A stretch of 53,995 nt of DNA, counting the filler, from Jimgerdemannia flammicorona (taxonomy: Eukaryota), in NCBI GenBank assembly GCA_003990765.1. It is 3 parts of 3 records of this genome, joined end to end, with 100 filler letters (N's around TTAATTAATTAA, not from the genome) between each part and the next. Parts side by side here need not be neighbours in the genome. Positions count along the whole stretch, not along the records: positions 1 to 17,937 come from RBNJ01002359.1; 2 more parts are not named here. One strand, given 5' to 3'. The position numbers and the translations under genes are program-made. Positions 1-51,812 of the stretch are shown here, piece after piece. The first letter of the stretch is position 1. The number at the start of each line of letters is the position of its first letter. Under the pieces are notes generated by a model. The model worked only from the letters and a program-made list of their open reading frames with translations, was not told the DNA's origin and did no database searches.

Positions 1-1109
1 GGAGACTCTGTGTGGATTACAGAAAACTCAACTCAGTCACTGAAAAGGATGCTTATCCTTTGCCCAGAATCGATGACCTTTTGGACCAGCTACAAGATGC
101 CAGATACTTCAGCAGTATGGACCTCTTTGCAGGATTCCATGAGATCCCCATGGACCCCAAGGACATTCAAAAGACAGCTTTCCTTGCTCTAGGAAAACTG
201 TTTGAATACCTCTGAATACCCTTTGGACTTTGCAATGCACCCCCCACCTTCCAGAGGATGATGAATTCAGTCTATGCCCCCTTGATCCACCACTGTTTGA
301 TTGTATACATGGATGATTCCAACATCTATTCAGCAAATTTCGAAGAACACCTGCACCACCTAGAGGAATTCTTCAAGCTCACCTGCAAGAATCACTTGAG
401 ACTGAATGCAAAGAAATGCTACTTTGGAAAACAGAAACTCGAATTCCTAAGATTTGTGGTTTCAAAAGAAAGAACTCATGCAGACCCAAAGAAAACCAAG
501 AAGATCAACAATTGGCCAGTACCCAAGACTCCAAAAGAAACACTATCATTCCTGATGCTAGTATCCTACTACAGAAGGTTCATCAAGGATTTTGCCCAAA
601 TCGCTGCCCCAATCCGAATCCTTCTCAAGAAAGGAATGACATTCAAGTGGACAGAATCACAGGAAAAAGCCTTCAGAGAACTCAAGAACTGGATGACTAC
701 AGCACCAATCCTTGTGCGCCCCAATCTGCAGAAGCCATTCATCTTGTATACAGATGCTTCCAAAGATGGCCTCGGAGCAGTTCTAGCCCAAGAAGGATCT
801 GACCAACAGCACCATATGATAGCTTATGCAAGCAGGGCTACCAATCAGCAGCAGATGAACTATGGTAGTACCAAACTGGAATGCCTTGCAGTAATATGGG
901 CAGTCACCCTGTTCAAGCATTACCTCATCGGAAAAAGGTTCACTCTGATTACAGACCATGCAGCCCTCAAATGGCTATTCAACTGCAAGGAACCTGCCGG
1001 AATTCTAGCCCGCTGGATCCTTATCCTTCAGGATTACAAAATCACCATCATTCACAAAGTAGGGAAAGCCCACAACAATGTTGATATACTTTCCTGCCAG
1101 CCCCAATGA
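1..1109 (+). pseudogene. pol: Reverse transcriptase-RNase H (family A)
   Basis: DYRKLN, YPLPRIDD, PFGLCNAP, YMDD (306-317), LYTDAS, TDHAAL; one in-frame TGA at 213-215 (likely from CGA). Confidence 0.95.
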
Positions 1110-2173
1110 ATCAGAGAAAGGGTGTCCCAAGGAACCACACCCTAAAGGAAGCTCCTCAGACCATCGAAGCACAGGAAGATCTTATCCAAAAAGAACATCA
1201 GAAAGCCCACCAAGGACAGACAAGTATAGAAGACAGAATTCGAAAACAATATCAACATTGGCCCCACCTCAGAACTCAAGTTCGGGACATCATTCAGAAA
1301 TGTGATACCTGCCAGAAGTACCAAGGAAAGAAGAACTATCAAGTCCCTCTGAAACCGATTCCCCCACCCACTCACATCTTTCAAAGATGGGAAGTAGATG
1401 TAATTGGACCTCTACCAGTTACACCAAGAAAAAACAAATACATCTTTATATTTGTAGAACATCTGACCAAGTGGCCCGAGGCTTTCCCAATGGAAATCGC
1501 AGATGCCTTAACCATTGTAGGCCTCCTCCATGGACTCACACTCAGATATGGACCTCCAGAAGAACTCATCTCTGACTGAGGCACAGAATTCATCAACAAT
1601 ATAATCACAAGTTATGCCTGAATTCACAAGATCCACCTCAAAAGGACCACATCATACCACCCTCAGACCAATGGCATGACAGAAAGAATGAACCAGACCA
1701 TCAAGAAAGGACTTGCCCAAGTCAACCCTACTAATTGGGACCTCTGCTTACCTGAGATCCTGTGGGAAATTCAAAATACCCCTGCTACTTCCACCAAACA
1801 AAAGCCATTCGAAATGATGTTTGCCAAGGAAACCAGAACTGCTGACCATGAGAATCTCGGAGACCTCCTCAAGAAGGCAGAACAGTTATGAAATCAAGCC
1901 CAAGGACAGATTATCAAAGCCCAGGAAAGACAAAAGAAGTACTATAACCAAAAACAGAAAGATCAGGAGATCAAGATTGGAGATTAAGTCTTAGTCTGGA
2001 GAAGCATGATTGAGACAAACTTTGCCGCCAAACTGGAACTAAAATGGGAAGGATCTTACCTTGTACACAATATCAGAGGAACCAGCATCTATTTAAGAAG
2101 CATGGATGGACGAACCCTGAGAACACCAGTACACATCAATTACCTCAAACTATATTTCCCCTCCACACCATGA
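1106..2173 (+). pseudogene. Stand-alone integrase ORF (family A)
   Basis: ATG overlaps the RH stop (ATGA); HQKAH...CDTC zinc finger, VDVIGP, ISD*GTEF, YHPQTNGMTER, KWEGSY; several CGA/CAA-type stops. Confidence 0.92.
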
Positions 2174-2685
2174 GCCAAAGGATTGATCAGTGCCTCCAGA
2201 CATTGGTCCTCAGCTCCTTCCAAGCCCTACCTGTTCCTCTACCCCAATTCGGCCAAGCCAATGGAAGCCCCCTTCAAAGGATCCAAGCTCATCAAGAAAA
2301 TCTCACCTTGGTCAGATGCCTACTACAAGTCCACCAACTGCAGGCCTATTATGCAATCGGTGAACAATTGCAGAACCTCCCAGCCTCAGAACAAACCTAT
2401 ATCAGAAATACTACAGGTCTGACCAGAAGAGACACTACTGCCGCAGACAGACTATACACCATTTATAAACGAAATATCACAGCCCTGATACAGGCACAAT
2501 TCTCCCTGAATGATATTCAAGGAATGAACCCTGTTACTTATCTGAGCATCATCAACTCTGTCGAAATCCTATTCCCTGAAGAAGAAGAAGAGCCCCTAGA
2601 ATGGAGTAATCCCAGTACAGACAATGAAGATGATGGAACAGGTATAGATACAGAAGCAGCCTATGCTTATTGGGATGATGACTGA
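2170..2685 (+). CDS. ORF3, 171-aa unknown protein with acidic tail, between IN and PPT
   Basis: Open frame; ATG overlaps the IN stop (ATGA 2170-2173); homologs at 13488-14007, 46480-46960 and 10438-11349. Confidence 0.8.
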   Translation: MSQRIDQCLQTLVLSSFQALPVPLPQFGQANGSPLQRIQAHQENLTLVRCLLQVHQLQAYYAIGEQLQNLPASEQTYIRNTTGLTRRDTTAADRLYTIYKRNITALIQAQFSLNDIQGMNPVTYLSIINSVEILFPEEEEEPLEWSNPSTDNEDDGTGIDTEAAYAYWDDD

Positions 2686-2712: not shown

Positions 2713-2724
2713 AGTGGGGGCTGA
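2713..2724 (+). promoter_or_regulatory. Polypurine tract
   Basis: agtgggggctga directly before the LTR TG; equivalent sequence in A2 at 13448-13459. Confidence 0.7.
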
Positions 2725-4043
2725 TGTGATAAGCCAAGATGTACCACCCAAATCATATCTTAACCAGATGACGCGAACAAGATGATGTGAATACTCAGCT
2801 TAGTAATCAGCAACTCTTGCTGCGGGAAACTGTATAAATAGCCAGACATACCAGAAAGGGTCTGTTTACCTGTACAGACTCTGTACACCGTACAGACTCT
2901 ATACACTGTACAGGTCCTGTACACCATACAGACTCTGTACACCTGCCATAAGTAGCAGATCTATAGTTAGCCACATAGTAACCAGGTAGCAACCAACTTG
3001 TATAAATTACCCCAGAGGCGAGAGTGAATAAAAACCTCAGTCCGAAATACAAACACCAAAGAAGTCTCTAAAGATTGGGCATTGGTCCCCTTTCCACTCT
3101 GGTCCACTTTCCGATATAAAGAAGAGCCTGATACATTTTTGGTTCGCTTGCCAGATAAGCCTGAAGAATTCGAGTTTGCTGTCTAAGTTCAAGGAAGAAC
3201 TTCGCTGCCTTTGGAATTATTGTTATTGGTTTGCTTGCCAGATAAGCCTGAAGATTTCTGCTACCTTTCTTGCCACAAGCCAGTCTTTCTGATGCAACTT
3301 TGCAGTGGAGCCAGTCTACGATGTAACCCCATGCAAACGAAGCCAGTCTTTGACATAACTTGCCAAGAATCCGAGTAGTATTCCCAGTTGAAGCCGATTC
3401 AGGAAGAATCCATGCCACTCGAGTTATCCGAGTTATCCGAGTTATCCAAGTTATCCGCCGTTTCTAAGTTATCCGCTATATTCCCAGTTAAAGCCGCCGT
3501 TTTCAAGAAGTCCGCCGATTCGGGAAGGATCCGCATCATCCACCATTTCCAAGTTATCTGCATTCCCAGAAGAGCCTGATTTGTGCCTTCCGAGTTATCT
3601 GTTATTCCCAGTGAGCCTAGGAAGAATCCACGCCATATGATTCCCAGTGAGCCAAATCGAGTTATCTGCCAAATTATTAGAACGTCCCGCATAAGGAAAC
3701 TGCCATGCTACACAGAGATCATCACGCAGAAATTGCATAAGGAGAACCGCTAGATTGCCAGACCATCACACCCAGAGATTGCATACTTTTGGAGATTGTC
3801 ATGCTACACAAATTGTACCATTCCCAGTTGACCCAAGAAGGAAGCCCATTCACACACAAATCGCCACTACACCCAGAGAACCATCCCAAAAAGGAAACCA
3901 CTTGCACAGTATCCAGATCTTGACTATTATACTGCTAAACACTAAGAACATTTTGTTGCTTTTAACAAAGTAACTGGGGGCTCAAGCCAAACTACATCAA
4001 CCCCCAACCTTGTAATTTGCCTCCATTGAGCTGGCACGTTATA
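2725..4043 (+). repeat. Family A 3' LTR (about 1.3 kb) with internal 18-bp and 9-bp tandem repeats
   Basis: tgtgat...gttata (CA decayed to TA); both ends match A2 LTR 12140-13447 and the right end matches 48713; AATAAA near 3027. Confidence 0.85.
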
Positions 4044-7000
4044 ATAGGTTTATGGTACTTCTTGAGTCTGTTTCTATATACTATAGTAGGCAGTACATAT
4101 GGTCTCTGAGAGTTTTCTAAGCCAAAAGATAGTTCTCTTGATATATTATACATAGAAGAGTTCTTTCTATTTGGACTCCAGTTTTCATAACTGTAAGACT
4201 TCTACCATATTTTGATAAAGTAAGACCTTTTCTCTGATTTGAATGAGTTTTAAGGTCTTGTAATTCTTTTCTGTATTCTTTCTTATTAAAACTTATAACT
4301 TGGTAATATAATCTTCTGTCTTCTTCCTGATTTAGTATAGTCTTCAGATTTCTGAGTCAATCTATCACTAAGTTAGGTCTAGATTTATAGCTAAGGTTTT
4401 ATCAGAATCTTCTTCTCTGAAGAGCAGTTCTCTTAGGGTAAAGTATATACTCTGTGACTATATATCTTATAGGACAGAGAGGGCAGTTGAGAGGTAGTTA
4501 TCCCAAATTCTCATATATGTCTAAGATCTTGGCCAGAATTTTCTTGAGGGTCTTGTTTGTTCTTTCTATCTGTCTATTTTCTTGAGAATGATATATAGTA
4601 GTCTTGATATACTGAATCATGTATTTCTGATACATTATCTTATAGAATCTGTTGACAAATTCTATACAGTGGTCTGTAGTGATTTACCTTAGTATCTTAT
4701 AGTGGCAGATAATTTCTTGATATAGGAAGTCAGCAATAGAGAGAGTATTGACTTCTTGTAATGCTCCTGCTTCAATCCATTTAGTAAAGAGATCTACAAT
4801 AACTATAATATAGTAGTTTCCTAATAGAGTTACTGGTAGTGGTCAAATGATATCTATTACAATGTGGTGAAAGGAGATATATTCAATTCTTAATAAATTA
4901 GATATCTGGTCTCACTGATCTTATTTCTATTTTTGACACTTATCATACCCTTTAACAAATTGACATAGGTCTTCTTCTATCTTAGGCCACTATATAGTTC
5001 TTCTTACCTTATCATATATTGGTTCCTCTTAAGTATCCTTGTTCATATACTTCCTTTATTACTTGATACTTCTTATATTCAGATATAATGAGCTTTTCTC
5101 CTTTTATAAGTATGGTATTATCTAGTTCAAATTGTTTTTAAGTCTGGTTGATGATGGTGATAGTCAAGAGTTTGAGATGGTTGGATATCTTCTACTGCCC
5201 AAGATAACTAATTAATCTATAGTATAACTTCTTATTCATATTGAATAGTCTTGATGAGAGTATTTTGGAGTATTCTTGAGAGTGCATCAGTATTGGTATT
5301 AGTTCTTTCTGGATAGTATTTGATTGTACAGTTATACTCTTGCAGTCTGTAGATCTATCTAATATATATTTCTTTGGAGTTCAGAGTGTGGAATAGCTAG
5401 ATGAGAGCAGAATGGTCTGTTTGAATAGTGAAGTATTTTCCAGCTAGATAGTAGTAGAACTTATCTACTGCCCAGACTACTGCTAAGTATTTAAGCTTAG
5501 TAACTCATAGTTCTGTTCTACTCCATGGATACCTCAGCTTATATAAGATATAAGATATTTATATCTATCTTTCTTCTAAGCTAGAACTGCTCCAAGTCCT
5601 ATAGCACTTACATCTATCTGCAGAATGAACTCTAGGTTCCAATCTGGTCTTCTGAGGATAGGTGCTTGGGTCAACTTAGTCTTGAGTTTATTGAAGATTT
5701 CTTAATATTCCTTGGTCTATTCAAACTTAATCTTCTTCTTCAGTAGCTCATAGATAAATACTATAATGTTAGATTATCTTTTGATGAATCTCCTATAGTG
5801 AGAGGTCAGTCCAAAGAAGACATGGACTTCTATAGTTGTTCTGGGTCTTGGGTAGACTGCAATAGTCTCAATCTTCATAGAGTCTGAATAAATTCCTATC
5901 TAATTGATGATATATCCTAGGTAGGCAATTTCTTGAGCTACAAATGTATATTTCTTGGACTTGATGTAGAGACCATACTCCTTGAACTTCTTAAGAGCTA
6001 GCTGTATATGGTTGATATATTTCTATATAGTATTGCTAAAGAAGATTACATCATCAATATAGACAAAGAGCTATTTTCCAATTTCATTACTGAAGACTTT
6101 ATTCATCATTTGCTAAAAACTTGCTGAAGCATTGCACATTCCAAATGGTATTCATAGGTAGACATAGGTGATATCAGATATGATGAAGGCTGATTTCTCA
6201 CTGGTATCTTGAGTAAGACTGATCTGATAGAAGCCTGAGAACAGATCCAAGGTAGTGTAGTATTTGGCTTCACTTCTAAGTAGTGCTCTAAATAAGTTAA
6301 TCTGGATAGGATTCAAATCTCATCTGGATCAACTCAGATGAGATTTGAATCCCATCTAGATCAATTTGAATCAACCATTATTTTGATTTCCAAATTAGAC
6401 AATTAAATGTTTATATCAATAACTTGATGAATAATCATCCAAATTTGATGATCTTGGAGTCATTTGAAAGCCTTTAATAAGGCCATTCTAATGATATCAA
6501 GATCATTGAAATTGGATTATATATTGTCGAGATATTAAGGAAAACATTCTTTTGATGTAATTTCCAAAATTGATAAGTCAAATAATTTTCAAAATCAGTA
6601 AGTCCAATGTTTTCCTTAATAACTCAGCAATATATAGTCTGATTTTAATAATCTTGATATCATTAGAAAGGCCTTATTATGGGCCTTCAAATGATACTAA
6701 GATTATTAAATTTGGATGATTATTCATCAAGTTATTAATGTAAACATTTAATTATCTAATTTGGAAATTAAAACAATGGTCAATCTGGATGGGATTCAAT
6801 CTGAATCAATCCAAATTCAATCCAGATTAAATTGACTCATTAGGAGTACTACTTCCAAAAGTGGTAGAGATTTCTTGAATATTTAGCAAGAGCTGTCTAT
6901 CCTTCTTAGTAATTGTATTGAGCTTCTTGTAATCAACAGAGTCTTGGAGCAAACTCTCCAGGCTTGCTTTCTTTCTTTGAGGTAAGAATAATAAATGAAG

Positions 7001-10000
7001 CCCAGGGGCTGATAGCTTGCTTGATGATACCAGCTTCTTCTATTTTCTTGAGTTCTGCTTGTAGCTATTCTCTATAGACAGATAGTATAGATCTGACTTT
7101 CTGATAGATGGGCTTGGTATTACTGGTATCAACTTCATAGTAGTACTTGGGTTCTTAATTGTAGATATCCCTAAAGTCTGTAGTAAGTACTTCTTTATTC
7201 TGGTATAGGATCTTGAAAAGTTGTTCTTCTAGAGGAAAGTTTTCTCCAATAGTATATATATGCTTGTTCTGATTCTTGTCTTTCTTGTACTCAAGTTCAG
7301 TAATCTTAGTAATAGTATAGGCTCCTCTTCTAGTAGATCCAAAGTCTTGTTTTTCTCTCTTAGTCTTGATAAGTTCAATGGCTTCAGTGATCTTAGGCTT
7401 CTTAACTTCATAGATCAGCATCTGACCAATCCTGTCATGCTTCATAACTTCGAATGAGGTGGTGGGGTTGTGATTTCTGACTATAAGAAAGATCTCACTA
7501 TATAATCAGAGTCAATGACTCCTTTTTTAACTAAGATTTCACTCTTGGCCAGACTGCTTCTGGTCTTAATAATTCTGATATAGTTCTCTGGTAACTTGAC
7601 TCTAATTCTAGTATCAAGTAGAGTGGTGGCCTGTAGTTCAAGGATAGTATCTCAAATACTGATAAGGTTCATTTCTACAGCTCCTTCAGTCTTATATTCT
7701 AGGATCTTAGCTTTGGGGTAAAACTTCTTAACCTTAAGAGTGATATCTAGTTCTTGTTTCTCCTCATCATCACTATTAGCTTGAAGCTCTGGGGGCTGGT
7801 CATATTATTCAGTTTTATTTTTTGCTTCAGCTGCTTCTTACTCATATCTTTATTGACAGATTTTTCTAACTTCACTGATATTAGACCAGTAGTCATTTAG
7901 GTGTTCAGAGCAGTATATTCAAATATCATAGAGGTATCTTTCTTAAAGGACATAGCTATCAATGATCTTGTTATACTACTGCTCATCTGTGAGCTTAGTT
8001 GTCTTACTCTTATTCTTATATACTAAGTATATGAAGACTTCTGTGTTCTATTTATCTCCTTCCTCTATATCTGATAGTACTTCTTTGTGGACATTAATAA
8101 AGACTCATACTTTTCTTTCTCTATAGTTGATCTATATCTTCTAGACATTGAGGTCAATAATAGCCTTGATCTTATGAAGCCATTAGTTATCAATAAGAAT
8201 GTCATAGTTAGTAGAACTCATAATAATTACATCTACTAGGATAATAGCTCCTCTAATCTTGATAGAGACTCTTTGATCTTACCTAGGAGAGTAGCTCATA
8301 TATCATCTGCTATAATATAGACTATTCTGGTGGATTCTTCAATATTCCAGCCTAAGCAGTCAATTGCTTTCTTACTTATGAGACATCCTTCAGCACTGGT
8401 ATCAATAATAGCATTAAAGATACAATCTTCAATCTGATATTAAGTATAGGCTGAGGTCTTGTACTGATCTTCAGATTCTTCATCTGAGTCTTCTTATTCA
8501 TCTTCTTATATATTATGAGCTTCTATTATCTTGTACTCTTAGTTTTTAATAGTAGTTGCAAGTTCTGCTCTCAACTACTGTCTGAAGGCAGAGACTTCTG
8601 CTAGTTGTTCAAAAGTAGCATTGACCTTCTGTTCCTTAAGGTCCTTATAGATATCATATTAATAAATCTTAGTCTTACACAGCTTCTGTTCTTTCTTATT
8701 TTCACTTTCTTCTGAGACTAGAGTAGTGTCTTCAATAATTTGATAGATAGCTTTATCTAACTCAATGTCTTGATCAATCTTCTCAGGTTGGGTCTTACTT
8801 TGAATAATGATAATTGGGGTCTTTTTTGGTCTTTCAACTGGCTTGCTATTGCTCTTCTTATCATAGGGCTTGGATTTGGTTCTGGTAACTTTAGTAATAG
8901 GATAGAATTCAGACTCCTTATAGTATTTTTCATCATCAGTATCACCAACCTCCTCAATGACTACTGTATTGATTTGTTCTCTAGTTCTGAAAGTATTACT
9001 TAGTTGGGCTCTATGCCTTATTTTGGTCATGCAATTCTTTACATAGTGGCCTTCTTCTTCACATTTAAAGTATATAATAGTGTGTTTCTCTATAGTAGCT
9101 ACAAACTTCTGTACTGATCTCCTGTTGGTACTTTATACTTCTCTAACAACATCATTAAGGTGTGTAGTCATCTTAGCAAACTACTGGGCAAGTTCCTCCA
9201 CTGGGTCAGCTTTGGCCATCTTGGAGGTAGGCGGGAATAGTTGTCTGTTGAGGTATGATACTAGTTGGCTTTAGTGACTCTATCTTGATACTAGTTATCC
9301 TTTTTATTGAGTATTCAGTAGAGTGTCTGACAGTCCAATATCTCTGTATAAAAACCACTTTCTGGTCAAGGGTCAGAGCAGCTAGAGTAGACTGAATTGC
9401 TAGGGCAATTTTATAGTAGACTCTTTGAATCAGCTATCTATTCTTTGAGGATATCATTATAGCTAGCTAAGATAATCTAGTAGCAGATTCAAGTATAGAA
9501 TGAGTTGGGGTCTTCATTAAGTCCTTAGCAGATAGTATTAAGTTGATCTTTGAGAGCTTACTTAATCTGTTCAGTATAGTATATAGTTCTGAGGAAGTTC
9601 TTTATATTGGTGAGTTTGGCTGTACTATTGTTGACAATGGTGGCTATATCGAACTTATCTTTGATAGGTCCTCTGAGGCTGACAGGTAGAAGGACCAATT
9701 GTACTTCAATACTGAGAGCTTATATAGTGGCAAATTATTCAAAGTCTTCAATGAAGGTCAATATTGACTCTTCAGTAGTAAATTCATAGAATGTGTTAAG
9801 ATATATTTCTATCTTATCTTGAATTCTTGCAGAAGGTAACTCTTGAAGTCAGGGTAGTTATTGTAGTTATTATTCATTATTCAGCTTAAAAGTAAGGGAT
9901 CCTAATAGTATTACTAGCTAATGGGCACCAAATTGTTACATAGTGAGTACTAAGTTCTCTAAGTATATCAGATTCTCTTCAAGATGTATCTCTTAGACCA

Positions 10001-10429
10001 ACCATAAGTTTCTTATAAGTAAGTTCTATTGGAGTACTTTTCCAAAGTCTTATAGTTCTCAACTTCTTATCTTTAAACTATTTTATTATCTCTTAGATTT
10101 ACTTGTGTAAAATTGAGTAGAGGATAGAAACTTTTATACTCTTCAGTAGTTGAGTACTTGAATACTTGAGTGTTTTAATACTGACTTTATTTCAAAGAAA
10201 ATGAGAGAGGTATTTATATAGAATATAATTCAATAATTGCTAATATATAAAGCTAAATATAAAATCCAATAACCAAATAAGATATTTGAATTCAGAAAAC
10301 TTCTGATTGTAAGTATAAATTTGAGTACTCATATAATTGATTGCACAAGATCAGAATGCTGGAATAATTTCTAATAGCTACATAAGGTCAAAATTTCAGA
10401 ATATTCAAGTATTCAAACAAATAGTTATA
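4044..10429 (-). mobile_element. Ty3/gypsy family B, copy B2 (heavily decayed; 5' LTR about 9934-10429, PBS 9914-9930, gag-PR-dUTPase-RT-RH, IN)
   Basis: Colinear with 41170-46400; zinc knuckle about 9030-9072; protease IDTSA about 8400; dUTPase about 7335-7740; YIDD about 6050. The far LTR end is uncertain. Confidence 0.9.
6281..6851. mobile_element. Foldback MITE, probably hAT-derived, inserted in the B2 RT
   Basis: Termini tagtgctc/gagtacta; arms about 6372-6548 and 6606-6781 are reverse complements; 8-bp TSD cttctaag (6273-6280) / cttccaaa (6852-6859); RT homology resumes on both sides. Confidence 0.85.
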
Positions 10430-10437
10430 CAAACAAA

Positions 10438-11349
10438 TTAGAGTAGAATGTTCAGAATTCTGGGGGCTTTGTCTTCATCACTATCATCAAGGCTAGAGGT
10501 TAGAGATAGGATGTCTTCAAAGGAAATAAGGTCAGCAAACATTTTTGTTTCATTCATTTCATGTGTGTTGATTAGTGAAATGATATCATTACCAGTGATA
10601 TCATCATGTTTAATAGTAGTGGGAAGAAGATCAGAGGCTCTCTAATTTATGATATTTTCCTCTACAAAGTAGGAGATAAAGATGGGATCTTGAGAGGGTC
10701 TGACCTAGATACTGAGGCCTTAGAATACTGAGATTAATTCTTACATAAATTGATCTAGATTGTTCTCAAGAATAGAATTCCAGAACTCTTCTATCTCATC
10801 ACTTTTGAGAGTAATAGTGGATTGAGCTTCTGTGGCCACTATGGCTTCTAGTGTATCTGTGTGGTAAACTGATAATTTATTGAAGTCTGAGACTCTAGTA
10901 TACTCTAAGTTGGGAAATGGCTAAGGTATATATCTGAAGATTTAATGGATCTTTTTAGCTACTCTCAATTTATATATATCTATAGGAGTGATATCTTATA
11001 TCTCTTGGGAACTGGTCTGAATAAATTCCTAGCAGAGGCAGTTTCCTATTTTATATTCCTACTACATCTAGAGATATTCAGTAGTAGTAGTGATCCTTGT
11101 CTCTATTTCACAGTGGTAGAGAGTAAAGTGGTAAGAGATACCAGTGTCCAAGTTGAGGCTTGAGATCTTTCTGGTATAGATTCTCATAGCTCTCCTATAT
11201 AATATCTTGAAACATTCTTTCTTAAACTGAGAAGTCTTGGTGATTTCTGAATATTGTGATTTGGCAAGTGGTAGGTATTTTATTTATAGTAAGTCTTTTG
11301 AACTATTTCAGATTTTTGTAAGTCTTATTGAAGTTGCTGCTACTGTCAT
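10438..11349 (-). pseudogene. Decayed ORF3 homolog (about 303 codons) from a third gypsy family, preceded by an IN C-terminal remnant
   Basis: Manual translation: *EYKIGNCL...RVAKKIH*IFR...RVSDFNKL with an acidic tail; upstream HLKEYKRRTRK* overlaps its ATG as ATGA. Confidence 0.7.
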
Positions 11350-12139: not shown

Positions 12140-13447
12140 TGTAATATATTTGGCTCAATGGAGGCAAATTATAAGATTGGGGGTCGGTATAGTTTAGCTT
12201 GAGCTCCTAGTTAATTTATTAAAAGCAATAAAATATTCTTGGTATTTAGTAGTATAATAGTCAAAACTAGATATTTGCAAGTAATTTGTGTGTTGATTTT
12301 CTAATTGGGATAGTTATTTGTGTGTAGCAGCAATTTGTATATATGTAAGTGATAGTCTAGAAATCTAGCAGTTTTTCTTATGTGATTTCTATATGATGAT
12401 CTTATATAGTATAGTAGATTTCTTATATATAATGATCTAACAATTTGGCAGTTTTTTTATATATAATTATCTGGCAATTTGGTGGGTTTTCTTCTTAAAT
12501 AACAGGTGATCTCTATGCAGTATAATGATTTTCAAAAATATGTAATTTCTGACAGATGACTCAATTTGGTACAGATTCTCCTAAATCAACTCACTGGGAA
12601 TTATATTGGTACAGATTCTTCTTCACTAGGAATAGATGGATAACTTGGATATTATGAATTCTTGGTAAGTTATATTAAAGACTAGCTTCATTTGCATGGA
12701 GTTATATTGTTAGACTGGCTCTACTGCAAAGTTGTATCAAATAGACTGACTTGTGACAAGATTCCTTAAAGCAGGCTCTCTGAGAATGTGGATAACTTAG
12801 AAATAGTAGTAAAGTTCTTCTTAAACTTTGGTAGCAAATCTTCAGACTTATCTGATAAGTAAACTAAAAATATAGTGGCTTATTCCTTAAGCAGCAGATT
12901 TCTCTTCAAAAGGTAGTGAAGTTCTTTCTTGAACTTGGTAGCAAATCTTCAGACTTATCTGGCAAATAAACCAAAATATAGCAGCTTATTCCTTAAGTAG
13001 AAGATTTCTCTTCAAAAGGCAGCAAAGTTCTTCCTTGAACTTGATAGCAAATCTTTAGACTTATCTGGCAAGCAAACTAAGGCTTTGTATTAGAAAGTAG
13101 ACTGGAGTAGAAAGGGGACCAATGCTCAATCTTTAGAGACTTCTTTGGTGTTTGTATTTCAGACTGAGGTTTATTTACTCTTATCTTTGGGATATTTTAT
13201 ACATTGTGGTTGCTATCTAGTTACTATGTTACTAATTATAGACTACTATTTATGGCAGATGTACAAGTTCAGCACAGATATACTGGTTCAGCACAGGTAT
13301 GTAGTTTTGGTACAGGTATATCTTGTCTGGTAGTCTGACTATTTATACAGTTTTCTGTAGCAATGGTTGCTATATCTGGTTACTATGCTAAGTGTTTATA
13401 TCATCTGACTAAGTTATAATTCAGGTGATATATTTTGGTTTGTCACA
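12140..13447 (-). repeat. Family A 3' LTR with an internal tandem repeat of about 107 bp (about 12810-13080)
   Basis: TG...CA ends; homology to 2725-4043; aagttctt recurs at about 12812, 12919 and 13026. Confidence 0.85.
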
Positions 13448-13487
13448 TCAGTCCTCACTAAAGGATGGTCTGTCCTCGGACTATCCT

Positions 13488-14007
13488 TTAGTCATCATCT
13501 CCATGTGGATAAGTATCTTCTGTAACAATATCTATTCTATCATCTTCATTATCTATACTATGGTTACTCTATTTCAGAGGTTCTTCTTCTTCTTCTGGGA
13601 ATAGGATTTCAACAGTATTGATGATGCTCAGATAGGTGACTAGATTTATTCCTTATATATACATCATACCAGGAGAATTGTACTTATATCAAAACTACAG
13701 GGTTTCATTTATAAAGGGTGTAGAATCTATCTACAGCAGTGATATCTCTTCTTGATAGTTCTATGATATTTCTGATGTATATTTGTTCTGGGGCTAGAAG
13801 GTTCTGCAATTGTTCTCCAATTGTATAATGGGTCTGAAGTTGATGAATCTGCAATAATTGTCTGGTCAGGACAAGATTCTCTTAATAAATCTGAATTTTC
13901 TAAAGAGTATTTCTATTGACTTCTCAGAATTAGAGTAGGGGAACTGGTAGTAATTGAAATGAGCTAAGGACAAGAGTCTGAAGGCAGTTATTAACTCTCT
14001 GATTCAT
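13488..14007 (-). pseudogene. ORF3 of copy A2
   Basis: MNQRVNNCLQTLVLSSFQ...FPEEEEEPLK; homologous to 2170-2685. Confidence 0.85.
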
Positions 14008-17280: not shown

Positions 17281-17906
17281 GGTATACTGGGTAACATTAT
17301 TACTAAGTTTGGGCTGTTCTTGGGCTGAGGCTCTACTAGCAGAGAGCCTCTAGACTCTGAGGTTGAGGTGTGACCATCTGGCTCCAGTAGAGGGATCTTG
17401 GAGATAGTTGATTTCTCTTCTTCCTGTAGGGTCTAGGGCTTCCATGAAGTTGGTGGCATCTTCTGTCCATCCTTAATGAGTTGCATGTCTGATGAGAGCT
17501 AGGATGTCTTCTCCTAAATTGTAGATCTTGAGGGTCCTTCTTTCTGACTTCCTGATCTGGCTTTTTCAGATCTGACCTCTGCTATCTCCTCTCTTCAAGG
17601 TATGGATTGCAACATCATGACTGAGGTGAATCTTCTGATGTCTGCAGTCTTAGCAGTCTGGGTATCTTCTATGGTTGTAATATTCCATTGCTTGAAAATG
17701 CCATTCCTGGTTGTTGATTTCTTATATCTCAGGAATTGGTACCCATCTTGGTCATAAGTTGGGAGAAGAGTGGACCAGGGGTATAGTTCTGTTCAGGTAA
17801 AGAGATCTTATCCTCTGAATCAACTTTGCAACTTGGTGGTAACTTCTTGGAAGGTAGTTGACTGTGTAACTATATTTGGAGGTTCTGTTCTTTGGGGTCT
17901 CTGTCT

Positions 17907-17937
<31 letters not shown>

Positions 17938-18037
17938 NNNNNNNNNNNNNNNNNNNNNNNNNNNNNNNNNNNNNNNNNNNNTTAATTAATTAANNNNNNN
18001 NNNNNNNNNNNNNNNNNNNNNNNNNNNNNNNNNNNNN
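17938..18037. other. Artificial contig spacer
   Basis: 44 N + TTAATTAATTAA (stops in all six frames) + 44 N. Confidence 0.97.
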
Positions 18038-25780: not shown

Positions 25781-25879
25781 CTTACACTAATATAATCAAC
25801 TATAATATCTTCATTGACAACTAGTAGCTTTATAAAGTCAGAGCAATAATTGATCTGAATATCCAAAAGATATAAATTA

Positions 25880-28800: not shown

Positions 28801-29090
28801 TAAGATCTAGTATATTTGAACTATAATCTATTACCCTCAGAGAAATAGATAAGCAGAAAGGACCAACAAGAATCTCAAGAATATTATCACTAAGATCTGT
28901 GATAATTATGAAAACTGAGATCACTATCTGCCAATAGCATTATCTGCTCTTTGAAATATCTGATCACAAAGTACCCATTTAACCCTCAAGAGATGCTTAT
29001 TTGGAGAAGAAAGTTCTCAAGGAATCTTATTGTCCAATAGAGATACTATATGGAAATATATAGATATAAAGATATAGAGACTATATCAAA
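25880..29090 (+). mobile_element. Family B fragment B3 (end of PR, dUTPase, RT, RH, most of IN)
   Basis: Colinear with about 42970-46180, with many transition-derived stops. Confidence 0.92.
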
Positions 29091-30194: not shown

Positions 30195-30279
30195 ACACAC
30201 CTTTCACTAGTAACATTCAGGTGACACAAGACTCAGACAACACTTTCAACAGCATTTTTAGTGAAAGGTGACTAACAAT

Positions 30280-32198: not shown

Positions 32199-32229
32199 GC
32201 TGGGTTCTCAAATTCAAACATTATTCAAT

Positions 32230-40706: not shown

Positions 40707-41173
40707 TGTGATGGTGTAGCCATATTTGGAAGAAGGAAATAGGGAACAGACACTTGATCACACTCAGTCCCAAAGTAGTATAGCCACATAGTTAGTAGTC
40801 CTCAATTCTGCCATTTGCTAAATATTTCGCAAAGTGCAAGATCGAGCTTCTCAATTTAGTATAGCATTTCACAACTGGCGAAATATTTTGCAAAGTGTTA
40901 AATGACTCATAACTTAGCCACGTAACCCAGTAACCATCTCATAGCTAGCAAACTTGTATAAATAACCCAGTATCTTCGAGTGAATAAACTTCAGATCAAA
41001 ATAGTTCAAAGCAAAGAGATAGTAAAGGAACTAGTAAGCCTGCAGGCAAATATACTTCGAACTCACCCACCCTCCCCTGTAACTTCAAGAGACTCTGCGA
41101 GAGTCAGAACAGTCAAGTTTTCAAGATACAGAAATCCGACATACTTTTAAGAGTAAGTGTTCGCTATGTTATA
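40707..41173 (+). repeat. B1 5' LTR
   Basis: Direct repeat of 46955-47421; TATAAA and AATAAA inside. Confidence 0.95.
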
Positions 41174-41176
41174 ACT

Positions 41177-41193
41177 TGGTGCCCATTGGCTGG
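41177..41193 (+). promoter_or_regulatory. Primer binding site TGGTGCCCATTGGCTGG
   Basis: TGG 3 nt after the LTR; conserved in B2 (9914-9930); tRNA identity unresolved. Confidence 0.75.
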
Positions 41194-41287: not shown

Positions 41288-44200
41288 ATGGATATAAGAC
41301 CACCAGTATTCCATGGATATACCTCAGATGAATCGATCATCACCTTCATTGATGATTTTGAGCAGTATGCTGCTGTAAGGACCCTGACAGCAGCATAGCA
41401 AGTAGCCCTCATGCCCTTCAGCCTACAAGGCCCTGCCAGAGCAGTATTCACAGCTGCAACCCATGCAGGAAATAATGCTGATGCTATACTGACAGTACAG
41501 AAGACCTGGCTCTAAAATACATATTATACAGATGAAATCAAGCAAGCTCTGAAGGATCAGCTCAATACAACATACCAAGGAATAAGCGAGGATCCAAACA
41601 CATTCTATACCAGAATTCGATATCAGATAATCCTTGCAGATTATGCTGCTACTATTCGAGATCAAGTAGTCAAAGCAACCTTTATGAAAGGAGTCCATCC
41701 AGAAATAGCCATGGCTATCCGCTTATCACCAGTGATCCTGGATTTGCCACAAAAGGTCACCTATGCTCAGTGATACTGGATAGCCAGACACCCACAAGAC
41801 CATACAATGGAGAGAGTTACAGGAGTCAGAATCAAAGCACCCAAGGCAACCAGTGTGATCCCTATCACAATGATCAATCGAAACACACCTCAGCCAAAAG
41901 CTACAGAGCAGAAAAAGAACAGTGACCCTATGGAGGAACTCACCAAAAGGTTTGCTGAAATGACTACCCACCTGGGAGATGTGGTAAAGGAAATTCAAGG
42001 AAGAGACCACTGCCCTATTCAGAAGTTTGCCGCCACCTCAGACAAGAAGAAAGGTACCTGCTATAGCTGCAGAGAAGAAGGCCACTACTCCTATGAATGC
42101 ATGAGCAAAACCAAGCGCAAGGCTCAACCAAGCAATACTATATGAAATAAGGAGCAGGCCAATACAATTACCTTTGAAAAAATTGGAGATTCTGACAAAG
42201 AAGAATGGGAGGCCTATCCTGCTCAGACTACCAAAAAGGATGCTCGCAAGGAACTCTACAAGAGACTGCCAGGAAGACCCAAGAAGAACCCAGTGGAAAA
42301 GCGGATGGAAACTGCCACAGTAAGCCAAGCCAAAGAGATGGACCAAGATATGGAGCTGGAGCAAGCAGTTCAAGATATCATCTGAGGAACCACTCTAGCC
42401 AGTGAAGGAGAAAAAGAAAAGAAGCTTCACAAGACCAAGACCTTCAAGTATGACATTTTCAAGGACCTCAGTCAACAAAAGGTCAATGCAACCTTTGGTC
42501 AGCTTACAGAAATCCCAACATTCAGACAGTAAATGAGGTTTGGACTTGCTGAAACAACCAAGGAATAAGGATTGAAGATAACTGAGGCCAATAATGTTCA
42601 AGAGGACTCAGGAGAAGAAAGTGAGGACAATCGCAAAACCTCTGCTTATGCAATATGCCAAATCGAAGATAGAATCTTTGAAGCCATCATTGATATGGGA
42701 GCAGGAGGATGTCTCCTCAGCAAGAAGGCAGCGGACTGCCTAGGTTGGGATGTAGAAGAAGCAACTAAGCTGGTGTTTGTCACAGCCAATGACACAAGAG
42801 CCACACCTCTGGGAAAGATCAGAGATGTTCTCATCAAGATTGGAGGAGCAACAATCCCAGTAGATGTAATTGTAACCAATACCACCAACTATGACATCCT
42901 CATCGGCAATCAATGGCTTCACAAAGCCAAGGCAGTAATCGATCTCAATACTCAGAAGATGCAGATCACCTACCAGGGACAGAAGATACAAATTCCCATC
43001 AATGTCAACAAAGGAGTCCTGCCTGATATGGAGGAAGAAGAGAGCGAGTAAGAGGAAGCTTATATGGTGACTACTCTAAAGAAGAAGAAAGTTGGATGGA
43101 TGAGTGAAGAAGAATGGTGCAAGAAGATCGTAGAAGGCTGTGCACCACAAGGAGTCTGTCCTCACAGGATCAAGATGTACTGTATGGAGCATGTCAACGA
43201 TTGCTACCAGTGTACCATCGGAATCAAGAAGACCCACCAGGAAAGAAAACAGAAAGCTCTCGAAAAACAGATCAGGGAAGAAGAGAAGAAGGAAGATGAC
43301 GAACTACCGGCCCTCCTGGAGGACAGCGATGATGAAGAAAAAATCAAGGTCAAGATTCAAAAGATCCACCCTGATACAGTCTTACCTGAATACAAGTCAG
43401 AAAATACAGCCAGAATGGACATCGCTATAGTAGAAGAGACTGTACTAGAACCCCAGACAACCATCCTACTCACAACCGGACTGGAAATAACCATTTCAAA
43501 AGACCACGTTGGGATCCTCAAGACAAGAAGCAGCCTGGCCAGAAGCAAAATTACTATCAAAGGAGGAGTCATCGATTCAGACTATACTGGAGAAATTCTG
43601 CTCATTGTCAGGAATCACAATCCTACAATTCCATTCCCAGTCAAGAAGAAGGACCAATTGGCACAGATGTTGATCTTCCCAATCATACAACCAAGGATCA
43701 TAGAAGTCAAGAATCTGGAGGAAATGAAAAGAGAAAAGAAAGGATTCAGATCCACAGGAAGAGGAGTATTTGCCAGCACCAAGATCACCGAACTCGAGTA
43801 TAAGAAAGAGGAAAACACAAGCAAGCACAGCTATACCATCAGAAATGAATTTCCACTCAAGAAAGAACTCAAGAAAATACTCCATGAATTTGAAGATGTC
43901 CTTGCCACAGACTTTAAGGATATCAAAGGAAAGACCCCACACTACTATCATAAAGTAGATACTGGAAACACCGAACCTATTTATCAGAAGGCAAGACCTG
44001 TCCTGCCAGCCTACCAAGAATGGCTCAGAGAAGAAATCAAGCAGATGGAAGAAGCTGGCATCATTAAAGAAGCCAGCAGCCCCTGGTCCTCACCTGTTGT
44101 ACTAGCCCTGAAAAAGGGCAGCAAGCTTGGAGAATTTGCCCCAAGACTCTGTGTTGACTATAGAAAGCTCAACATGGTTACCAAGAAGGATTGCCAACCA

Positions 44201-45280
44201 CTGCCCCTCATCAATAACATCCTCATAATACTGGGAGATGAAGCACAGTACTATAGCACTTTGGACTTATACTCAGAATTCCACCAAATCAGACTCACAG
44301 ACATGACAAGTGAAAAGTCAGCTTTCATCACCCCAGACAGAACCTATGTCTACCTATGAATGCCATTTGGAATGTGCAATGCACTAGCAAGTTTCTAGCG
44401 AATAATGAACAAAATCTTCTACTATAACATGGGAAGATAGATGATGATCTATATTGATGATGTAATCATCTATAGCCAGACACCAGAAGAACACCTGTAG
44501 CACATCTGGCAGATAATGGAAAGACTGAGAAAGCATGGCCTATACATCAAGCCCAAAAAGTGCAAGTTTGCAGAAATCGAGATCTTCTATCTTGGCCATA
44601 TTATCAATCGAGATGGAACACACATGGACCCCCTCAAGATACAAGTGGTAGCAGCATACCTAAGGCCCACTACTATCACAGAAGCTCAAGCCTTTATGGG
44701 ACTTGCCTCCTACTATCACAGATTCATTAGAGGATTCTCCAATATTGCAGATCCAATCTACGAACTCAACAAGAAGGATACTAAGTTCCAGTGGACTGGT
44801 AGACAACAAAAAGCATTCGATGAACTCAAGGTCAGACTGACCCAGGCACCCATCCTCAGAAGACCTGACTGGACTCAAGAATTCATCCTACAGACTGATA
44901 CAAGTATATAAGGACTAGGAGTAGTCCTAGCTCAAAAGAAAGATAAAGTGGAGTATGTCATCACATATCTCAGCCATGGAACCTGAGGAGCTGAAAAAGA
45001 ATACGAATCCTACAAGTTGGAATGCCTCGCAGTCATCTGGGCCATAGAAAAGTTCCACTACTACTTGGCTGGAAGACACTTCACTATCCAAACAGACCAC
45101 TCAGCTCTTACCTGGCTACTGACAACTGGACAACTCAAAGAAATCTATACTAGATGGATAATGAAGTTGTAAGCTTATGATGTAACCATCATACACCACT
45201 CTGAAAGAACCAATGCCAATGCAGATGCCCTCTCATGGACAACCTGAACTACCTCCAAGCAACAAATCAATCATGAATAA
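41288..45280 (+). pseudogene. gag-PR-dUTPase-RT-RNase H in a single frame (1331 codons, with in-frame stops)
   Basis: PPVFHG, CYSCREEGHYSYEC, IIDMGAG, dUTPase GGVIDSDYTGEI/KKGFRSTG, DYRKLN, YIDD, LQTDTS, NADALS; the frame is unbroken. Confidence 0.93.
43345..43760 (+). pseudogene. dut: dUTPase domain between PR and RT (family B)
   Basis: ARMDI, TRSSLA, GVIDSDYTGEI, LAQML, KREKKGFRSTG. Confidence 0.92.
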
Positions 45281-46463
45281 GGAGCTCTACTATGGAATTA
45301 TCACATATCTGGGACAACGAAAGATACTCCAACATCTGGAAGAATGGATACAAATGATTATCAACAGAACATGGAAATAATTTGAAACTGATAGAGAAAT
45401 ACTGAAAAAAGGAAAACTACTAGTCATATCAGAATACAAGAAGGAGCAAGTGATGAAATCAGTACATGAACTTGGCTATCTAGGAGAAACAAATACATAT
45501 GACAAGGCAAGGAGAACAATATGGTGGCCAGGGATGGAGGAAGATATCAGACAATTTGTCAAGACCTGTGACAAATGCCAGAAACAGAAATAAGACCAAT
45601 GAAATGAAGCTCCAGAATCAGTACATATAGAACCAGTACCATTCGCTCACATTGCAATGAATGTAATCAGCCCTCTACCCTTGACTTTGACTGGCAACCG
45701 ATACATCATTGTCATCATAGACCTTTTTACAAAATGGATAGAAGCAGGACCCCTTATGGAAGCCAATGTACAGTCAATCACCAATTTCTTCTACAAAGAA
45801 ATCATCTGCTGGTTCAAGACTCCAACACAAGTAACTATAGATAGAGGAACAGAATTCGTAAACCAGCTCTTTGAGGTTCTCTACAAGAAGTACAAGATCC
45901 AGTACATCTGGACCACAGCCTATCACCCCCAAGGAAATGGATAAGTAGAAAGGACTAACAAAACCCTCAAGAACATTATTGCTAAGATCTGCAATAATTA
46001 CAAGAACTAGGATCACTATCTGCCAATAGCATTATCCACTCTCCAGGATATCTAATCACAAAGTATCTACTTTACTCCTTGAGAAATGCTATTTGGAGAA
46101 GAATGTTCTCAGGGAACCCTATCATCTAATGGAGATGCTATATGGAAACATGTAGATATGGAAATATGGAGACTATACCAAATCAGGAAGAAGGCTGAGG
46201 ATTACATAACCAAGGTGCAGACACTACAATGGAGGAATGCTGAAAAGACCCATAAACCTTTGGAGATTATCAAGATAGGAGACAAAGTCCTGGTGTATCG
46301 GAATATGGTAGAAGCTTCATGGTCATGAAAACTGGAGCCCAAGTGGGAAGGACCTTACCTGGTGCAAGACATAAAAGGGACCACCTTTTGGCTATAAAAA
46401 CTCTCAGATATAATAATCCCCACCACTATTCACCGAAACCAACTCAAGAAATATCATAGCTAG
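45273..46463 (+). pseudogene. Stand-alone integrase ORF (family B)
   Basis: ATG in the +1 frame overlapping the RH stop (ATGAATAA); HELGY...CDKC, DRGTEF, YHPQGNG, KLEPKWEGPY. Confidence 0.92.
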
Positions 46464-46479
46464 TAACAAAAGTACTGTG

Positions 46480-46960
46480 ATGGCACTCAAGATCACTAGT
46501 GCTGCCCAAAGAGCCATCGAGAGACAATGGTGTACCACTGAGCCTCCGACTATAGAGGAGTCTTATGACAGTATCCAAAGTATTGTGCAGACTCATCTCT
46601 CTCAAATCTCACACTTCAAGGCCTACCAGCATCGAAACGAATTTCAAGAGTACTTCAAACTTGGCCAAGTACTCAACCAAGACCCAGAAATGACCAAAGA
46701 AAATTGGATCACAGAATACCAGCTCTCCTATTCCCAGATCACCATTGCTAAGAAAATTCACAAGCTATTCTGAGAGGATGAATTAGCACTAGCCCACCTA
46801 CGAGGAGTGACTCCCTCAGACTTCGAGCAAGTCAGACGATACCATTAGGAAACAGTAATGCAACAAATCACACAATATAAGACTATACAGACCATTGAAG
46901 CTTGAGAGTTTGAATAGATGCTTCAGAGACAAGATTATCTATTCAGGAGGAAGTTGTGAC
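46480..46960 (+). pseudogene. ORF3 of family B
   Basis: Aligns almost without gaps to family A ORF3; the frame continues past TGA 46771 (likely CGA); true end uncertain. Confidence 0.75.
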
Positions 46961-47421
46961 AGTATAGTCATATTTGGAAGAAGGAAATAGGGAACAGACA
47001 CTTGATTGCACTCAGTCCCAAAGTAGTATAGCCACATAGTTAGCAGTTCTCGATTCCACCATTTGCTAAATATTTCACAAAGTGCGAGATCAAGCTTCTC
47101 GATTTAGTATAGCATTTCACAACTAGCAAAATATTTCGCAAAGTGTTAAATGACTCATAACTTAGCTATGTAACCCAGTAACCATCTCATAGCTAGCAAA
47201 CTTGTATAAATAACCCAGTATCTTCGAGTGAATAAACCTCAGATCGAAATAGTTCAAAGTAAAGAGATAGCAAAGGAACTAGTAAGCCTGTAGGCAAATA
47301 TACTTTGAACTCATCCACCCTCTCCTGCAACTTCAAGAGACTCTGCAAGAGTCAGAACAGTCAAGTTTTCAAGATACAGAAATCCGACATACTTTCAAGA
47401 GTAAGTATCTGCTACATTATA
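46955..47421 (+). repeat. B1 3' LTR, preceded by PPT aggaggaag
   Basis: Direct repeat of 40707-41173. Confidence 0.95.
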
Positions 47422-48090
47422 CTATGTGTTTCTATATAGTATCTCTATTAAATAATAAGATTTCTTGAGAACTTTCTTCTTCAAATAGCATCTCTTGAGG
47501 GATGAAATAGATACTTTGTAATCAGATATCCCAAAGAGCAGATAATATTATTGGCAGATAGTGATCCTAGTTTTTATAGTTATTGCAGATCTTGGTGATA
47601 ATATTCTTGAGAGTCTTATTGATCCTTTCTGCTTGTCCATTTTCCTGAGAGTGATAGACTATAGTCCAAATATACTAGATCTTATACTTCTTATAGAAAA
47701 CCTCAAAGAACTGGTTCACAAATTCTATTCCTCTATCTGTAGTTACTTGTGATGAGGTCTTGAATTGGCAGATGATTTCTTTGTGAAAGAAATTAGTAAT
47801 TAACTATATATTGGCTTCTTTGAGAAGTTCTGCCTCTATCCATTTTGTGAAAAGATCTACAATGATAATAATATATCAGTTGCCAGTCAAAGTCAAAGGT
47901 AGAGGACTAATTACATATATCTATTATAATATATGCAAAGAGTACTGGTTCTATGTAGAGTTTTGATTTCTTAGTCTTATTTCTGTTTCTGATATTTGTT
48001 ACAAATCTTGACAAATTGTCTGATATCTTTCTTCATTCCTGGTTACTATATTATTCTTCTTGCTTTATTGTATATGTTTATTCCTTCTGA
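47422..48090 (-). mobile_element. Family B integrase fragment B4 (target of B1; continues at 40683-40706)
   Basis: Reverse-complement homology to about 45480-46180, continuous across the CTAT TSD. Confidence 0.88.
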
Positions 48091-49778: not shown

Positions 49779-49862
49779 CACGCCTTTCACCGGTAACATT
49801 CAGGTGACACAAGTTTTGGACAACACTTTCTGCGAAGTTTTTGGTGAAAAGCTACTATCAAC

Positions 49863-51782: not shown

Positions 51783-51812
51783 ATTGTGATATCCCTACCA
51801 ACATTATTCAAT

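Follow-up and report, generated by a model that had tools for sequence, protein, structure and literature searches.

ORF3, a candidate accessory gene downstream of the integrase in dUTPase-bearing Ty3/gypsy retrotransposons of Jimgerdemannia flammicorona

A third open reading frame between pol and the 3’ LTR

Analysis of a 53,995-nucleotide (nt) stretch of DNA from Jimgerdemannia flammicorona (GenBank assembly GCA_003990765.1; parts of three records joined end to end, referred to here as the window) identified an open reading frame, designated ORF3, between the integrase-encoding end of pol and the 3’ long terminal repeat (LTR) in two families of Ty3/gypsy retrotransposons, A and B. ORF3 of family A was found to be coding and under purifying selection. 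It is probable, if only slightly so, that ORF3 represents a genuine third gene of a dUTPase-bearing Ty3/gypsy clade that was vertically inherited by families A and B, and probably by a third lineage (D/F).

The copy of ORF3 in the family-A element A1 (2170-2685, plus strand; protein P0001) runs for 171 residues without a stop codon, as a preliminary description of this DNA had reported, and fills the gap that separates the end of the integrase (pol stop codon TGA, 2171-2173) from the polypurine tract (PPT) and 3’ LTR. It ends 27 nt ahead of the purine run at 2713-2720, with the LTR starting at 2722 (Table 1). The start codon of ORF3 and the stop codon of pol overlap within the sequence ATGA, a junction that is retained in all three family-A DNA copies (A1, A2 and the metagenome contig L001). 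Relative to pol, the frame of ORF3 is -1 in family A and +1 in family B, with a stop codon in between. The remark in the preliminary description that ORF3 is still open in A1 holds, but carries little weight alone, as 171 codons would remain open with a chance of about 1 in 4, estimated from the density of lesions in A1 pol (~720 codons with five premature stops and one change of frame). The same description had counted four copies; those identified here were A1, the broken copies A2 and B1, and a single distant and decayed remnant from a third lineage (11142-10744, minus strand).

Coding constraint on family-A ORF3

The A1 and A2 copies of ORF3 were compared over 163 codons using the Nei-Gojobori method, giving proportions of non-synonymous (pN) and synonymous (pS) differences of 0.172 and 0.590 and a dN/dS ratio (omega) of 0.17, while comparison of A1 with L001 over 114 codons gave a pN of 0.162 and a pS of 0.768, with omega being saturated. 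The corresponding omega values for the integrase were 0.25 (A1 and A2) and 0.13 (A1 and L001), and those for the two off-frames of the ORF3 region were 0.64-2.7 across both comparisons. Since the copies carry a strong C>T and G>A bias, the analysis was repeated with transversions only. These were found at 14 of 300 0-fold against 9 of 49 4-fold degenerate sites in one comparison (ratio 0.25) and at 15 of 212 against 10 of 42 in the other (ratio 0.30), with Fisher p-values of 0.0018 and 0.0027 (pooled 1.3e-5) and off-frame ratios of 0.71-1.76. The preliminary description had proposed a selected accessory protein and had called for a dN/dS check guarded against C-to-T decay; for family A this proposal was borne out, with an in-frame omega of ~0.17 or lower and a transversion-only ratio well below 1. 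The 52 codons that precede the ATG in the frame of ORF3 (2014-2169) also lack a stop, but their omega is ~1, which places the start of the gene at 2170.

That no functional protein is made, the frame being open by chance or through constraint on a cis-acting signal (RNA or DNA) close to the 3’ end, is highly improbable. The openness of A1 is not significant alone, and gene callers report open copies only, which biases the database matches described below towards such copies. The synonymous excess is nevertheless frame-specific and absent from the two other frames, which would be unexpected for a cis-acting signal, and diverged copies retain the same start and stop.

ORF3 was found to evolve faster than the integrase (nucleotide identity of 70-73% versus 81-83%), as is often the case with antagonists of host defence, and a role against a silencing, restriction or DNA-repair factor of the host was considered. 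The elements are under heavy mutational pressure: the observed/expected ratio of CpG in the window is 0.15, and the 202 changes private to A2 (13011-16157) include 89 C>T, mostly in CpA or CpC context, and 44 G>A. This suggests that cytosine deamination or a process like repeat-induced point mutation has acted on the repeats. An antagonist is nonetheless quite unlikely, as omega is far under 1, no positive selection is visible at the present resolution and no homology to known suppressors was found.

Relatives of the ORF3 protein

Database searches identified eight relatives of the family-A protein among 61 candidates (57-82% identity), while all 11 candidates for the family-B protein were relatives (67-84% identity); all of these come from short environmental contigs. 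When 1.84 billion cluster representatives were scanned exhaustively with HMMER, just six matches reached E<=0.001. ORFs of the ORF3 type are masked together with repeats and are thus invisible in protein databases. One of the six, P0013 (534 amino acids (aa), repetitive, eight matching stretches, E-value 3.6e-6), was regarded as a match of low complexity and kept out of the alignments, as was P0009, owing to the out-of-frame reading of its C-terminal half.

Full-length members share their start and stop in spite of 22-43% divergence. Intact family-A relatives with the same stop are P0002 (171 aa, 78% identity), P0003 (172 aa, 73%) and P0005 (183 aa, 57%), with like ends found for P0014 (153 aa) and P0022 in family B. 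The N-terminal extensions of P0005, P0006 and P0008 were rejected as part of the protein, being out-of-frame readings of the integrase end. No longer or fused form of ORF3 was found among 622 longer candidate proteins at E<=0.01. In the ESM Atlas, only unnamed clusters were matched (0.90 for P0001 and 0.95 for P0014); two of the clusters came up with both proteins, and this serves as a lead only.

A metagenome scan with P0001 gave 284 pattern matches, from which a single locus (L001) was obtained. The integrase is present on this contig together with the ATGA junction and codons 1-117 of ORF3, along with three private stops, and the linkage of ORF3 to the integrase is thereby seen on an independent contig.

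In family B, the ORF3 copy of element B1 is broken by premature stops and has ATA in place of a start codon, while the proteins of its relatives begin with methionine (MANNRST...). The ancestral ATG was probably situated at 46456, which is four bases ahead of the stop codon of pol (46460-46462). The peptides that the preliminary description had quoted from 46480 were recovered, but the true start is 24 nt further upstream, at 46456.

Homology between ORF3 of families A and B

Profiles of the two families (11 sequences each) were aligned by hhalign over 53 columns (probability 78%, E-value 1.8e-5, score 38.5). None of 281 column-shuffled family-B alignments reached this score (mean 12.8, standard deviation 2.35, maximum 22.1), and reversed-alignment controls scored 8.3 and 8.7. 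When the hidden Markov model (HMM) of each family was run against the six frames of the window, ORF3 of the other family was the best foreign match and was colinear (i-E-values of 0.015 and 0.17). A joint MAFFT alignment of 24 sequences was likewise colinear, from the N-terminal helix through to the final residues, with one-residue gaps in the core, gaps of 5-6 residues in one subgroup of family A and a long gap opposite the family-A acidic tail. Landmarks common to both families are a near-invariant His, (Y/F)xx(I/L)GxxL, (Y/W)I, AxR(I/L)(Y/H)x(L/I)(Y/F)(K/R), AL and D(I/F), and in both the C-terminal end consists of Trp and acidic residues (YWDDD in A, AWEFE in B).

A decayed remnant resembling ORF3 was also identified directly upstream of the 5’ LTR of element D and was assigned to a third lineage (F/D). 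BLASTP of this remnant against family-B proteins gave E-values of 1.9e-5 (P0016) and 4.7e-4 (P0014), with weaker or no matches to the other eight of ten subjects. Against the merged A and B profile it gave an E-value of 7e-5, compared to only 0.003 and 0.027 for the single-family profiles (E-values being for one sequence). An integrase upstream of the remnant was looked for, and none was recognisable.

Judged from these alignments, ORF3 of families A and B are very probably homologous. The claim that the ORF is shared between families was upheld by the hhalign score with its shuffled controls, the colinear alignment and the third remnant. As for the near-gapless alignment of A and B described before, colinearity and significance at the profile level were found, but the likeness is weak between single proteins and a long gap faces the family-A tail.

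The two ORFs might instead be unrelated, being small helical ORFs that arose independently in the same gap and resemble each other in composition. Pairwise identities of 13-20%, the weakness of the cross-family HMM matches, the shallow profiles and the differing frame offset to pol would all agree with this. It is very unlikely in view of the shuffles, which preserve composition and come nowhere near the real score, the reversed controls of 8-9, and cross matches that are reciprocal best in all six frames of the window. Colinearity over the full length, including the Trp-acidic end, also argues for homology, as does the better detection of the third remnant by the merged profile. A structural model from the merged alignment was also more confident than one from family A alone (see below), a comparison that is uncontrolled, as the targets differ.

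Shared LTR core and descent within one clade

The LTRs of A and B had been described as unrelated. This was not upheld, as the LTRs of all copies of both families were found to have a common block of ~75 nt, TGTATAAAT-ACCC-(9 nt)-GAGTGAATAAA-CCTCAG-CGAAATA, comprising a TATA box followed by the poly(A) signal AATAAA at fixed spacing, the LTRs being otherwise unalignable. A 24-base pattern, built from the block in the A and B LTRs themselves, had five matches in the window, every one of them inside these LTRs, against 0 expected. The distance between the TATA box and the poly(A) signal is only ~20 nt, implying a very short R region.

Elements D and B1 have a primer binding site (PBS) and leader in common, and a dUTPase was found in B1 (with Pfam) and in A2. 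Between families A and B, identity is 43% across 293 aa of reverse transcriptase (RT) and RNase H and 28-46% in the integrase, while D and B are 51-60% identical in pol. Elements A, B and D/F can be placed in one clade because the LTR core, the PBS and a dUTPase-bearing pol architecture are shared. ORF3 would most simply be an ancestral gene of this clade, as descent explains its sharing better than does its presence in unrelated elements. A dUTPase between protease and RT is known from elements of basidiomycetes and bdelloid rotifers (PMC5408684; PMC2864245).

Two further observations were made on the LTRs. The LTR of D appears by eye, unaligned, to have a similar TATA/AATAAA block, and a PPT-like run was read from the sequence in the same way. 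In the family-A LTR, short tandem repeats (CTGTACAC.TACAGACT-like units) are situated at 2867-2942, downstream of a TATA-like motif (2831-2844) and upstream of the common block (2999-3032), and are possibly a regulatory array.

Properties of the predicted ORF3 protein

No membrane segment was identified in the ORF3 proteins, with the maximum 19-residue Kyte-Doolittle mean being 0.91 for P0001, 1.11 for P0005 and 0.19 for P0014; the usual threshold for a membrane segment is ~1.6. The isoelectric point (pI) is 4.3-4.7 for family-A proteins and 5.6-6.8 for those of family B. The acidic tail noted earlier in A was located to residues 136-171, these 36 residues having a pI of 4.05 and a net charge of ~-15, with W, Y, F and L among them.

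AlphaFold2 gave an unusable model from the family-A alignment alone (mean predicted local distance difference test (pLDDT) score of 51), while the family-B protein P0014, modelled with the merged alignment, gave a pLDDT of 71.8 and a predicted template modelling score of 0.63. In this model, an amphipathic helix and a loose linker lead into a confident helical core (block means of 73-89 over residues 41-120, ~89 at residues 61-100). The models are all-helical, in agreement with the earlier remark that the protein looks helical.

No match at or near threshold was found in Pfam, with single proteins or with all 24 members. Sequence profiles of the PDB gave none at E<=0.001, with the best (tissue factor, 0.022; asparaginase, 0.046) taken as chance, and Foldseek also gave none at E<=0.001 (best E-values of 0.5 for the PDB and 0.56 for BFVD). 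A VIA wide fold search gave a best Z of 5.3, within the noise range for helical proteins. A match to a characterised env or known accessory ORF, named beforehand as grounds for refuting a new accessory protein, was thus not found in Pfam, the PDB or Foldseek. The ORF3 protein is predicted to be small (~150-170 aa), soluble, all-helical and acidic; it is not an Env protein and no recognisable enzyme.

The observation that ORF3 occupies the env position without a transmembrane segment agrees with the Kyte-Doolittle values. An envelope protein was rejected on the basis of the missing membrane segment and the all-helical, acidic character of the protein. Also rejected was a C-terminal extension of the integrase or other part of pol, given the intervening stop and change of frame, the omega of ~1 upstream of the ATG and the lack of fused forms. 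No chromodomain was identified by Pfam in the tested pieces of the A1 and B1 pol ORFs, which included both C-terminal pieces of the integrase.

Candidate functions

Nucleic-acid binding, partnership with the integrase and anti-silencing had been proposed beforehand as roles of the protein, and the family and fold searches gave no evidence for any of these three candidates. Another candidate role for ORF3 is that of an LTR transactivator like Tas of foamy viruses, with a helix-turn-helix (HTH)-like core that would bind the LTR block and an acidic, aromatic tail that would activate transcription. The best-conserved segment is HTH-like in the P0014 model (helices at residues 81-88 and 92-105, pLDDT ~89). 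HTH-type proteins also recur weakly in the searches (KorB at Z 4.4, CENP-B and TetR/KstR, and the Pfam family HTH_Tnp_Mu_2 for two of the 24 members at an E-value of 0.031). An acidic, aromatic-rich composition, as found in the family-A tail, may mark activation domains, and A and B have both retained the common promoter block of the LTR. This role is unlikely, as the structural and family hints of an HTH all lie below noise, the protein is acidic to neutral overall, the long tail is absent from B and no DNA-binding family was matched.

An RNA-handling factor similar to Rev or to CERV of the element Cer1, acting in export or translation of unspliced genomic RNA, would have a precedent among LTR retrotransposons in CERV (PMC10309623). 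In family A, the N-terminal part of the protein has a Leu/Pro-rich stretch, LxxLxLxxFxxLPxPLP. It is loosely reminiscent of export signals, but is not conserved in B. The lack of an arginine-rich or other RNA-binding signature, a pI of 4.3-6.8 and the production of CERV from a spliced mRNA (PMC10309623) make such a role for ORF3 even less likely than that of a transactivator.

Proposed expression and mechanism

ORF3 may act as an adaptor. Its protein would be made from the RNA of the element itself, possibly by ribosomes that end translation of pol and restart at the overlapping AUG. The helical core, in which A-x-R-(I/L)-(Y/H)-x-(L/I)-(Y/F)-(K/R) is the best-kept motif, would dock on the nucleoprotein particle (on Gag, the integrase or the RNA), while the C-terminal tail, with Trp and acidic residues at its end (YWDDD in A, AWEFE in B), would bring in a host factor on which some step of retrotransposition depends. 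Ends of this Trp-acidic kind may bind specific machinery of the host or be a mark of activation domains. The adaptor mechanism as a whole is put forward tentatively and falls short of being probable. Stop-restart translation of ORF3, proposed by analogy with the systems compared below, is doubtful; the start codon lies close to the pol stop in both families, as the ATGA overlap in A and as the putative ATG 4 nt before the stop in B. It is rather unlikely that ORF3 defines an undescribed accessory family combining restart translation with a Trp-acidic end that tethers particle or LTR to host machinery, be it as an adaptor or as a transactivator.

Several findings weigh against ORF3 being a third gene inherited by A and B and expressed in this manner. 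BLASTP between A and B is weak (16% identity over 62 aa, E-value 0.011), and the hhalign probability is just 78%, from very shallow profiles (Neff 1.6). Purifying selection was measured in family A only, no second DNA copy of family B being found in the viral_contigs or genome_contigs searches, and the case for selection in B leans on its conserved open relatives. A crude test of rate heterogeneity among sites gave none (variance/mean of 1.05 and 1.15; 31 and 36 invariant columns against ~32 expected). The long acidic tail is confined to A, and no homology that would point to a function was found with Pfam, PDB sequences, folds or the Atlas. As for expression, the frame offset of ORF3 to pol differs between the families, and a pol longer than 1000 codons would make restart inefficient. 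Restart systems depend on a structured or rRNA-pairing element further upstream (PMC10275272), whereas minimum free energy folding of the 100 nt upstream gave z-scores of -0.62, -0.07 and 0.02, with pseudoknots and rRNA pairing outside the method. The ORF3s of other elements are usually expressed from a spliced subgenomic mRNA (PMC5408684).

The hexamer GTAAGT, which corresponds to the fungal 5’ splice-site consensus, was observed close to where the B LTR ends, immediately ahead of the PBS, at 41153-41158 and 47401-47406. It might serve as the splice donor of a subgenomic RNA.

Comparison with known post-pol ORFs

Extra ORFs downstream of pol are already known, but the ORF3 protein family matches no described type and is absent from Pfam. 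A keyword search of the open-access literature found no description of it in print. The ORF3s of bdelloid rotifer elements (PMC5408684) are similar in being additional same-strand ORFs between pol and the 3’ LTR of elements with a dUTPase between protease and RT, and some of them are small (210-230 aa) and, as here, have no known role. Those described there are otherwise env-like with transmembrane segments, coiled-coil proteins, GDSL esterases or DEDDy exonucleases, and ORF3 of J. flammicorona lacks a transmembrane segment, matches no enzyme family and has no relative of known function that could be detected. The fungal Gypsy elements with an ‘add. ORF’ (PMC2864245) are also Ty3/gypsy elements, some with a dUTPase, with an additional ORF of unknown function. 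These bear a chromodomain, unlike the pol pieces of A1 and B1 examined here.

CERV of Caenorhabditis elegans Cer1 (PMC10309623) resembles ORF3 in being a novel, non-env accessory protein that is encoded by the element, and it is needed for the life cycle of Cer1; it acts in nuclear export of genomic RNA. The post-pol ORFs of the plant Athila, Tat and Retand elements (PMC2864245; PMC11963269) have the same position and are often assumed to be env-like without proof. They are much larger, are situated in long internal regions and have no detected similarity to ORF3. Stop-start junctions of the AUGA or UAAUG kind are described for caliciviruses, influenza B, two viruses of fungi (CHV1 and HvV190S) and the retrotransposon SART1 (PMC10275272), in which the AUG overlaps or is near the stop of a long upstream ORF towards the 3’ end of the RNA. 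Those systems have an upstream element, while none was detected at the ORF3 junction by minimum free energy folding.

The extra genes of LTR retrotransposons are a source of new biology, including envelopes, export factors and enzymes. ORF3 offers a clean entry to a new accessory function, being a compact, selected gene without a known relative, present in at least two and probably three lineages that are ~57% different in RT-RNase H. Restart at ATGA, if true, would be a translation mechanism as yet undocumented for LTR elements and the first at a pol-ORF3 junction of such an element.

Organisation of the window

The window, with a G+C content of 39%, was found to be filled by a nest of retroelements, the layout of which was drawn from self-comparison and protein mapping (Table 1). 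A1 pol is broken by premature stops at 213, 1577, 1619, 1889 and 1985 and by a frame change near 1085-1109. Element D (9340-4098, minus strand) is cut by the A1 LTR less than ~10 nt from the end of its pol, so that its post-pol region lies outside the window. Along the minus strand of 9932-11142, the order is the ORF3-like remnant, a PPT-like run, an LTR, a PBS and gag, which suggests that F and D are two tandem elements with one LTR in common. The 5’ part of A2 is broken up by runs of N and a poly-A stretch at ~17800-18000, leaving its gag and 5’ LTR unreadable.

Table 1. Positions of ORF3 copies and associated retroelement features in the window
Feature	Position	Strand	Remarks
A1	1 to ~4040	+	5’ end lost at window edge
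A1 pol remnant (end of RT, RNase H, integrase)	3..2173	+	Pfam: RVT_1, RT_RNaseH, Integrase_H2C2, rve_3
Family-A ORF3, copy A1 (P0001)	2170..2685	+	171 aa, open
ATGA, ORF3 start codon overlapping pol stop	2170..2173	+	From sequence
PPT-like run of A1, AGTGGGGG	2713..2720	+	From sequence; aligned with A2
A1 3’ LTR	2722..4040 (end approximate, 4031-4047)	+	Contains TATA/AATAAA block 2999-3032
LTR block copies	2999-3032, 13170-13203(-), 40955-40988, 47203-47236, 49618-49651(-)		
Element D	gag at ~9340, pol end at ~4050	-	A1 LTR abuts pol end
Probable LTR common to F remnant (3’ LTR) and D (5’ LTR)	9932..10655 (limits approximate)	-	D PBS and leader match B1
Decayed ORF3-like remnant F, third lineage (F/D)	10744..11142	-	Directly upstream of D 5’ LTR
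A2	~17200 to 12153	-	79% identical to A1
A2 3’ LTR	12153..13462	-	
Family-A ORF3, copy A2	13491..14007	-	Many in-frame stops and a frame shift
Very decayed gypsy element	22248-18948	-	
B-like fragment	25786-29089		
B1, full element	40707 to ~47430	+	Its LTRs 93% identical
B1 5’ LTR, then PBS-like TTGGTGCCCATTGG	40707..41183 (end approximate)	+	
B1 gag-pol	41774..46462	+	Broken by stops; Pfam: CCHC gag, protease, dUTPase, RT, RNase H, integrase
Family-B ORF3, copy B1	46456..46917	+	Premature stops 46771, 46846, 46903; natural stop 46915
B1 PPT, AGGAGGAAG	46946..46954	+	From sequence
B1 3’ LTR	46956..47430 (end approximate)	+	TATA/AATAAA block at 47203-47236

A third copy of the family-A LTR, probably a solo LTR, was observed at 48727-49778 (minus strand) without adjoining A-type coding sequence, its neighbour being a B-like integrase fragment (47417-48091, minus strand). 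Two copies of a non-LTR retrotransposon similar to long interspersed nuclear elements were also observed on the plus strand, at 49848-53993 and 30196-34390, the older copy being ~75% identical. In one copy, a 570-aa ORF1 is open, and ORF2 (endonuclease and RT, identified with Pfam) is open as far as the end of the window.

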